DNA of 9,606 bases, from positions 1-9,606 of the IMG/VR virus record IMGVR_UViG_2541047901_000004, one strand, 5' to 3'. The notes under the pieces were generated by a model. The model saw only the letters and a program-made list of their open reading frames with translations, was not told where the DNA came from and searched no databases. The first letter of the stretch is position 1; every line of letters starts with the position of its first letter. Both the position numbers and the translations under genes were made by a program. The stretch is from a virus (taxonomy: Duplodnaviria; Heunggongvirae; Uroviricota; Caudoviricetes). Below, piece after piece: positions 2,382 through 2,580 of the stretch.

Positions 2382-2402
2382 ATCTGATTTCCTTGTTATT
2401 AG

Positions 2403-2485
2403 GTGGCTGACAGTATACACACAAGAAAATAGAAAAACACTATTGACGTGGCTGACACCTGTCACTAGCATAGTGGCTGACACCT
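2403..2485. promoter_or_regulatory. Divergent promoter/operator region with three direct copies of GTGGCTGACA (2403-2412, 2448-2457, 2473-2482)
   Basis: Copies 2 and 3 are identical over 13 bp (GTGGCTGACACCT) and spaced 25 bp apart. Copy 2 extends into the palindrome TGACA-CC-TGTCA (2453-2464). The candidate + promoter is TTGACG (2443-2448), 17 bp, TAGCAT (2466-2471), and it is overlapped by copies 2 and 3. The candidate - promoter has -10 TATACT (complement of 2412-2417) with a weak -35, and copy 1 lies at its expected start site. Confidence 0.6.
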
Positions 2486-2580
2486 TTATTAAGGTAATCG
2501 ATGAAAAGACAAAGCCCGCAGGTGCTACCAACACCAACGGGCTTCTAACCACCAACGATAGCAGAAGTATCGAGGCAGCT

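Follow-up and report, generated by a model that had tools for sequence, protein, structure and literature searches.

A predicted ribbon-helix-helix operator switch and SymR-like antisense RNA ahead of the icd-like/primase operon of an Escherichia coli phage satellite

What keeps the replication genes of a Gram-negative phage-inducible chromosomal island (PICI) silent while the island resides in the chromosome of its host? Fillol-Salom et al. (2018) described these elements as transcribed unidirectionally, rightward, called the existence of a repressor in them unclear, and called the differing induction strategies of Gram-positive and Gram-negative islands a mystery (PMC6092414). The window analysed here, that is the whole 9,606-nt stretch of IMG/VR record IMGVR_UViG_2541047901_000004, is an integrated E. 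coli phage satellite of ~10 kb, a PICI-type island, in which a gap of 199 bp separates a leftward gene for a 59-aa ribbon-helix-helix (RHH) protein from icd-like, the first gene of a rightward operon that also holds the primase gene (Table 1). An initial annotation of the sequence had placed a divergent genetic switch in this gap. The best explanation of what we find there, and one that we consider probable, is an RHH switch acting on three operators, with a predicted antisense RNA as a second lock, ahead of the icd-like/primase operon.

The sequence GTGGCTGACA occurs exactly, on the plus strand, at 2403-2412, 2448-2457 and 2473-2482, as the initial annotation had it, and copies 2 and 3, at a distance of 25 bp, indeed share 13 identical bp (GTGGCTGACACCT). 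This is the one case in the window of a 10-mer with three non-overlapping copies inside 100 bp, and none of 1000 dinucleotide-preserving shuffles of the window gave such a case. The operator unit is better stated as an 11-mer pseudo-palindrome, GTG-GCTGA-CAC, to which the first copy (O1, GTGGCTGACAG) conforms at 10 of 11 positions, and the second and third copies are designated O2 and O3. A further palindrome that had been noticed in copy 2, TGACA-CC-TGTCA, does exist (2452-2463) but is not conserved; it is broken in the relatives L002 and L003 (96% and 90% identical, respectively) and absent elsewhere, and because it is lost already in such close relatives it is probably incidental. The sole rightward consensus promoter match in the gap is TTGACG-17-TAGCAT (2443-2471), and the earlier placement of copies 2 and 3 on this promoter stands, O2 lying in its spacer and O3 at the predicted start (~2478). 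The leftward hexamer TATACT (minus strand, 2417->2412; predicted start ~2405) shares the last base of copy 1, so that the overlap proposed between this copy and the promoter of the RHH gene is likewise borne out.

This arrangement is not peculiar to the window. We collected 13 annotated E. coli loci, 75 loci from Enterobacterales (taken from one-genome-per-species contigs) and 2 loci picked as natural chimeras, which together yielded 84 distinct regions between the two genes. Of these, 76 contain an 11-mer that recurs exactly, in direct or inverted orientation, as against 0 of 420 shuffles, and the three-site layout is the same in nearly all related loci, about 80 of them, from many genera. 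O1 ends in CAG, runs into the leftward -10 and lies ~25 nt from the start codon of the RHH gene; O2 begins at the final base of a TTGA(C/A/G)G -35, ~70 nt from that codon; and O3 lies just past a TAnnnT -10, 92-105 nt from it. The promoter elements themselves are conserved whatever the operator sequence: the leftward -10 is TATACT in 49 of the 67 loci that have O1 and TATAAT, CATACT or TATATT in 12 more, the rightward -35 keeps its position in 67 of 84 loci, and a TAnnnT -10 follows 17-18 bp 3′ of the -35 in 75 of 84. In a footprint alignment of the loci that share the window's GCTGA core (E. coli, Xenorhabdus, Pectobacterium and Proteus) O2 and the leftward -10 are invariant, and the longest stretches without change comprise O1 together with the -10, O2 together with the -35, and O3. 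In two loci (L046 and L047) other sequence has taken the place of the rightward half of this region.

Across the collection, all sites within one locus change together, and the five central base pairs of the unit fall into about 17 cores (GCTGA, GGCCA, TATTT, CGATT, GTGTT, TTCAA, TCCGA, GAGCA, GA(A/G)TC, GGTGC, GCATT, TAAGA and others). O1 always belongs to the same class as O2 and O3, usually with 1-3 mismatches, and is usually the most degenerate copy. In other classes O3 has either orientation, direct or inverted, and its distance from O2 is 22-25 or 35 bp; since both vary in this way, the units would be read individually, as omega reads its heptads. Each core pairs with one motif in residues 9-19 of the RHH protein, as in KSKKLEARVPH with GCTGA, KSQALKARVPH with GGCCA, KSQMTTVRIPH with TATTT, KSQQLNARFPH with CGATT and [KR]SLQVSVRLPL with GTGTT. 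Residue 14 carries the most mutual information with operator class (85% of the class entropy), followed by residue 12 (64%); these values are conservative, as single-linkage merging of cores over-merged the classes. Protein pairs that are identical at residues 11-15 have the same class in 143 of 144 cases, 50 of them at <75% identity in the helices, and 33 pairs with >=75% helix identity but differing strands differ in class. Two natural chimeras agree with this pattern. One from Proteus (L092) combines GCTGA operators and a GCTGA-type strand with helices typical of the GGTGC class, and one from E. coli (L093) has GCTGA operators and an N-terminus of the window's type joined to helix 2 of the protein of EcCICFT073, the model Gram-negative PICI. 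The operators thus co-vary with the DNA-reading residues of the RHH protein and not with other genes, as is expected of a repressor and its operators. Because the operator core tracks the strand residues, mainly 12 and 14, and not Icd-like, AlpA or the primase, and because the chimeras agree, the 59-aa protein almost certainly binds the three repeats, as judged from these sequence comparisons.

The protein itself fits this role. The label RHH given to the leftward gene by the initial annotation proved correct: the protein scores 61.9 bits (cut-off 30; E = 4.2e-17) with the NCBIfam family NF041551 (YlcI_YnfO_N), RefSeq annotates the gene as YlcI/YnfO, and an AlphaFold2 monomer model built with 25 homologues as input (predicted local distance difference test score, pLDDT, 87.7) has residues 11-18 extended and then two helices, which is the N-terminal strand followed by two helices that defines the RHH superfamily. 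Within the strand, residues 13, 15 and 17 are hydrophobic and 12, 14 and 16 polar or variable, and S10 and R16 are invariant among homologues. A sheet that turns one face to DNA should show such an alternation, which is consistent with a dimer whose antiparallel two-stranded sheet lies in the major groove. No Pfam family matches the protein at E <= 0.1, and a profile search of PDB sequences gave no relative at E <= 10. Homology to the helix-turn-helix repressor Stl was also considered and discarded, the modelled fold being RHH and not helix-turn-helix. Fold, layout and co-variation together support the earlier proposal that the repeats are operators of the divergently encoded RHH protein on back-to-back promoters.

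How would such a switch work? In the model that we favour the RHH protein, presumably as a dimer, would bind the three 11-bp GTG-N5-CAC pseudo-palindromes, the conserved GTG/CAC arms probably being read by the invariant N7, K9, S10 and R16 and the asymmetric N5 core by those strand residues that vary and face outward, chiefly 12 and 14. With O2 in the promoter spacer and O3 on the start, occupancy would block RNA polymerase, and the icd-like/DUF4222/primase operon would be off in the integrated state. O1, slightly degenerate, lies on the -10 and start of the RHH gene's own promoter and would confer negative autoregulation at higher protein concentration; we suggest autorepression at higher occupancy because of the position of this site on the promoter of the gene itself and because it is usually the most degenerate of the three. 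Of the autoregulated repressor that the initial annotation proposed as holding satellite replication off, the operator layout is thus upheld by the comparison of loci, and we infer both the repression of the icd-like/primase operon and the autoregulation from the position of the sites. The link between the switch and the control of replication is, in the same manner, one that we infer.

Several observations weigh against this model or loosen it. The rightward and leftward start sites, the binding of the RHH protein and the sign of regulation are all predictions from sequence; the -35 of the leftward promoter is weak and was missed by the consensus scan; and the 25 bp between O2 and O3 correspond to a non-integral number of helical turns, so that a cooperative geometry is not evident. 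Three sites are also not obligatory, as one Xenorhabdus locus (L018) is without O3 and the TTCAA class (L009, L010 and L080) is without O1 and has an extra site upstream of the -35. Protein and operators are moreover adjacent and co-inherited, and their association is partly linkage, although linkage alone is an unlikely cause because three separate sites change in concert and because of the chimeras. Finally, over-expression of AlpA alone leads to excision and replication of EcCICFT073 (PMC6092414), and since this element carries the same module the RHH protein would be no absolute lock, or AlpA would act on it or bypass it.

A second layer of control, which the initial annotation had missed, is suggested by the leader between O3 and icd-like, which contains a conserved hairpin with compensatory changes. 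The mismatches of this hairpin on the plus strand are nearly all C-A or A-C, which correspond to G-U pairs on the opposite strand, and the distribution of 92 G-U cells versus 7 A-C cells fits the minus strand only. The minus-strand consensus fold of 32 diverse sequences has 22 pairs and an energy of -25.3 kcal/mol, with double compensatory changes in 13 of the 22 consensus pairs. The predicted RNA (about 2582->2505) has a folding z of -4.73, covers the icd-like start codon and Shine-Dalgarno sequence, and ends in a terminator hairpin (2511-2545) that is followed by a U-rich run (2510->2504, minus strand). Its proposed promoter is a perfect extended -10, TGGTATAAT, at 2596->2588. Both N-terminal lineages of icd-like have a TAnnnT hexamer at a distance of 6-8 nt upstream from the complement of their start region, the other lineage, with its different N-terminal protein sequence, having it at the equivalent place.

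This candidate RNA resembles SymR (RF01809). The full SymR model matches in the window with 23.7 bits and, at the corresponding position on the same strand, in 5 of 12 further loci with 40.4, 37.5, 35.5, 28.0 and 24.9 bits, and like SymR the predicted RNA is cis-antisense to a 5′ untranslated region and start codon and has its predicted promoter just inside the open reading frame (ORF). The RF01809 gathering score of 61 bits is reached neither in the window nor in these relatives, and because all scores lie below this threshold we call the predicted RNA SymR-like and not SymR. Made from a constitutive promoter, it would start at the icd-like start codon, terminate just short of O3 and act as a second lock by pairing over the ribosome-binding site with whatever rightward transcript leaks through. 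C4 and isrK have been reported in some PICIs (PMC10111431); neither matches at E <= 1 in the window or at E <= 10 in 2380-2620, and a scan of the whole window against Rfam returned spurious eukaryotic matches only. Two other readings of the leader were dropped, namely a 15-codon leader ORF (2501-2548), which is not conserved in other loci, and a c4-like pairing of the hairpin loop with the icd-like ribosome-binding site, since the loops vary while the site is constant. Directly 3′ of O3 lies a small inverted repeat, CCTT-TATT-AAGG (2483-2494), which has a CCTTG...CAAGG counterpart at this position in many related loci; it may form a 5′ stem-loop of the rightward transcript.

The same parts can be read in other ways. 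The repeats might be chance or a recent duplication without function, for which nothing speaks but that they are small; the shuffles described above, the invariance of the sites across genera within a class while their flanks diverge, and the joint replacement of all three sites in other classes refute this. They might also be bound by another factor, as iterons of the primase or a Rep protein, as AlpA sites or as Icd-like sites, with the RHH gene adjoining them by chance. Repeated 10- to 11-mers beside replication genes are typical of iterons, and PHROGs labels relatives of Icd-like as repressors. One operator class, however, occurs with replication genes as different as D5_N/DUF5906, DUF927, RepA-helicase and 'DNA primase family', two loci with one and the same AlpA-type protein (WP_001452786.1) differ in their operators (TATTT in L008, GAATC in L012), and Icd-like is 88-98% identical across five classes yet 43% identical between two loci of one class. 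Class is tracked by the RHH strand only, which makes iterons, AlpA sites or Icd-like sites very unlikely as the identity of the repeats on this sequence evidence and brings the whole alternative close to refuted; we regard it as highly improbable. Activation besides repression is known for some RHH proteins, such as Mnt at Pmnt and AmrZ, and the sign of regulation here rests on site position, so the protein might be an activator or a Cro-like regulator of the lytic state at the rightward promoter and no maintenance repressor. An operator in the -35/-10 spacer and another at the start are, however, the classic repressing positions, the rightward promoter has a good -35 and correct spacing, and the divergent promoter of the RHH gene allows its expression while the rightward operon is silent, all of which leave an activating role improbable.

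More has to be weighed where the target of the switch is concerned. RHH protein and SymR-like RNA might together silence a toxic Icd-like protein, as LexA and SymR silence symE, in which case the module would be a toxin-control or addiction device and not a master switch of replication, and control of the primase would be incidental or come from other promoters. The gene order is in keeping with this, as the switch is followed first by icd-like, and the predicted antisense RNA, itself SymR-like, is aimed specifically at the icd-like ribosome-binding site; a second promoter-like site (2760-2787) lies within the icd-like 3′ end, and EcCICFT073 is inducible by AlpA alone (PMC6092414). Against it, icd-like, the next ORFs and the primase gene overlap or abut with no terminator predicted between them, the module always stands immediately 5′ of the replication genes whatever the primase type, and the toxicity of Icd-like is a matter of annotation only, PHROGs labelling its relatives 'transcriptional repressor'. 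We consider a device confined to toxin control unlikely, and retain the RHH switch with its antisense second lock before the icd-like/primase operon.

Does a switch of this kind have a precedent? In wiring it is closest to P22 immI and to LexA/SymR/symE and in role to the Stl/Str region of SaPIs (pathogenicity islands found in Staphylococcus aureus), and by sequence it is a member of none of these. P22 immI has the RHH repressors Arc and Mnt, the divergent promoters Pant and Pmnt, and the sar antisense RNA. It shares with the satellite the small RHH repressor(s), operators on two back-to-back promoters, autoregulation (which in the satellite is suggested by site position) and a short cis-antisense RNA (predicted in the satellite) directed against the ribosome-binding site of the downstream gene. 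It differs in that the satellite protein has no Pfam match to Arc or Mnt and no match among PDB sequences, in that P22 has two RHH proteins and the satellite one, in that the P22 target is the antirepressor whereas that of the satellite is icd-like and the replication genes, in that the 21-bp operators of P22 are bound by tetramers while the satellite has three 11-mers, and in that the present switch resides in a satellite.

With symE/SymR the satellite shares an RNA (predicted in the satellite) of comparable size (~77 nt in SymR) that is cis-antisense, starts just inside the ORF, runs over start codon and Shine-Dalgarno sequence and has two hairpins, as well as a full-model RF01809 match at the syntenic place in 6 of 13 loci and a sense promoter that would also be shut by a DNA-binding repressor. 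The matches, however, score 23.7-40.4 bits against a gathering score of 61, the regulated gene is icd-like and not symE, and the repressor is an element-encoded RHH protein and not LexA. The resemblance to Stl/Str that the initial annotation drew is sound as an analogy of wiring, in that a repressor gene is divergent from the excision/replication operon of a satellite and is the proposed keeper of the quiescent integrated state, but it does not extend to homology, as Stl is a large helix-turn-helix protein unrelated to the 59-aa RHH protein. Stl is inactivated by specific helper-phage proteins (PMC6092414, PMC6695447). AlpA, which the E. coli elements require, is absent from SaPIs, and the predicted antisense RNA layer is a further difference of the E. 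coli satellite. Omega of pSM19035 and the CopG-type RHH regulators of plasmids belong to another protein family and another genetic context, and the contiguous heptads of omega contrast with the 11-bp GTG-N5-CAC units of the satellite, which are 22-45 bp apart. The P1 immI operon (c4 RNA - icd - ant) likewise has an icd-type gene first in an operon that is silenced by a small antisense RNA; there, however, c4 works in trans after processing from the same transcript, and P1 is without an RHH protein and operators at this position.

The initial annotation had set the switch apart from the AlpA-only control described for Gram-negative PICIs. The module is no oddity of the window, however: EcCICFT073, the very element on which the AlpA-only model is based, carries the whole module (L091 25474-26053; NC_004431.1 about 1380473-1381052), namely a YlcI/YnfO gene (C_RS30120), the leader and an icd-like gene (C_RS30125). 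Its operators are of the GGCCA class (O1 GTGGGGGACAG; O2 and O3 GTGGGCCACAC), its second small leftward gene (C_RS30800) is the same as in the window, and the regulatory module and flanking genes of the window are homologous to their EcCICFT073 counterparts. The high locus-tag numbers of these small genes indicate that they were annotated late. A blastn search with window positions 2202-2580, at a sensitivity of ~65%, found matches in 988 of 5426 complete E. coli genomes, and relatives occur in Salmonella, Xenorhabdus, Pectobacterium, Yersinia, Serratia, Proteus and others, so the module is common in E. coli and spread over many genera of Enterobacterales. A tblastn search with the RHH protein of 50,697 deposited phage genomes found none, and with respect to that collection the family looks restricted to satellites. 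Nine genomes carry two to four copies of the module, among them that of Xenorhabdus innexi, which holds L025, L035, L041 and L076. None of the 18 co-resident pairs shares an operator class (P ~0.1), an exclusion that hints at heteroimmunity and is only suggestive.

We found no description of this switch in the literature (under YlcI/YnfO, EcCICFT073 repressor or PICI RHH; subscription-only papers were outside the scope of the search). YlcI/YnfO is unmentioned as a regulator in the survey of helper-embedded PICIs (PMC10111431), the preprint on capsid-forming PICIs (cf-PICIs), the EcCIMP1 paper and a 2026 Enterobacter survey, which lists YlcI/YnfO only as a 'prophage-associated protein' (PMC13612085). 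The switch is one of a familiar kind, at a place where the field states that no repressor is known. It is possible, and we put it forward tentatively, that the RHH protein, its class-specific operators and the SymR-like RNA are the immunity or master-repressor system so far missing from Gram-negative PICIs and cf-PICIs, EcCICFT073 included, that the 17 or more operator classes are heteroimmunity groups, and that induction overcomes the switch. If so, heteroimmunity groups would let several satellites coexist in one cell without cross-repression, induction by helper or AlpA might rely on an anti-repressor or on transcription of the alpA operon that reads convergently through the RHH gene, and the view of Gram-negative PICIs as activator-only and unidirectional would be incomplete. 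A proposed leftward repressor gene with matched operators before the replication operon, within the model element of the founding paper, would turn the stated question of a PICI repressor into simple experiments in an existing system. The classes would also supply repressor-operator pairs that are naturally orthogonal and whose recognition code can be read at strand residues 12 and 14, of interest to synthetic biology and for PICI-based delivery vehicles, and the RNA would be a new, SymR-like antisense family.

Table 1. Features of the window in and around the proposed switch. Promoter, operator-function and RNA entries are predictions.
Feature	Position	Strand	Basis or remark
Integrase	1-1239		
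AlpA (PF05930)	1650-1859		
Second gene of leftward operon, 57-aa basic protein	1971..2144	-	homology, phrog_21027
59-aa RHH gene, YlcI/YnfO family, proposed repressor	2202..2381	-	NCBIfam, AlphaFold2 model, RefSeq annotation
O1, GTGGCTGACAG, 10/11	2403..2413	+	overlaps -10 and start region of leftward promoter
Leftward -10 TATACT, RHH gene promoter	2412..2417	-	conserved in related loci
Rightward -35 TTGACG	2443..2448	+	consensus scan
O2, GTGGCTGACAC	2448..2458	+	begins at final -35 base, fills promoter spacer
Rightward -10 TAGCAT	2466..2471	+	consensus scan
O3, GTGGCTGACAC	2473..2483	+	covers predicted rightward start ~2478
Predicted cis-antisense RNA, ~78 nt, two hairpins	about 2582->2505	-	structure, SymR similarity
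Extended -10 TGGTATAAT for predicted antisense RNA	2588..2596	-	read from sequence, codons 3-6 of icd-like
Target operon	2581..5049	+	genes overlap or abut
icd-like, first gene of target operon	2581-2784	+	
Hypothetical ORF, target operon	2777-3004	+	
DUF4222 gene, target operon	3010-3291	+	
D5_N/DUF5906 primase, target operon	3295-5049	+	

The surroundings of the switch are those of a Gram-negative PICI, with the order int/alpA/primase, a size in the ~10-15 kb range, a dedicated site and an absence of lysis and tail genes (Table 1). In identical RefSeq genomes the satellite is flanked by cspD/yljB on one side and clpS on the other, and 3′ of the primase gene follow, in order, ssb, a ClpP-protease/major-capsid fusion and a small-terminase-like gene. 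The 57-aa gene, which the initial annotation had also missed, lies directly downstream of the RHH gene and is without annotation in the RefSeq record, which has a plus-strand pseudogene over 1840-2200 in its place. Its product is 93% identical to that of C_RS30800 of CFT073 and 78% identical to that of a gene in L006 that likewise lies just downstream of the RHH gene, and matches phrog_21027 with E = 6.7e-16; the gene is found in some loci only. The product labels of icd-like conflict, NCBIfam naming it 'host cell division inhibitor Icd-like' while its best PHROG families, phrog_6196 (1.7e-43) and phrog_1743, are both labelled 'transcriptional repressor'. An int-alpA RNA (Rfam RF02996) is present in a Pectobacterium relative (L063 347-413, minus strand) with 60.9 bits, above the gathering score, and was not detected in the window.

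Two further repeats lie outside the switch. A near-identical direct repeat of ~72 bp (CGGGTCCTCCCGGTGTAGTGACCTGCCACGGGGCGGGAGCG...GTTTTTGCATTTT) is found at 6075-6146 and 8611-8682, at the ends of ssb and of the capsid-fusion gene respectively, each copy just 3′ of a terminator-like hairpin and ahead of the next late-type operon. As RNA the copies fold with z = -2.7 and -2.0, they have no match in Rfam, and they could be a late-promoter or antitermination element. Astride the alpA 3′ end, a 14-nt direct repeat (CTGAGGTTGTTGCA; 1801-1814 and 1856-1869, 55 bp apart) may be a recombination scar or chance.

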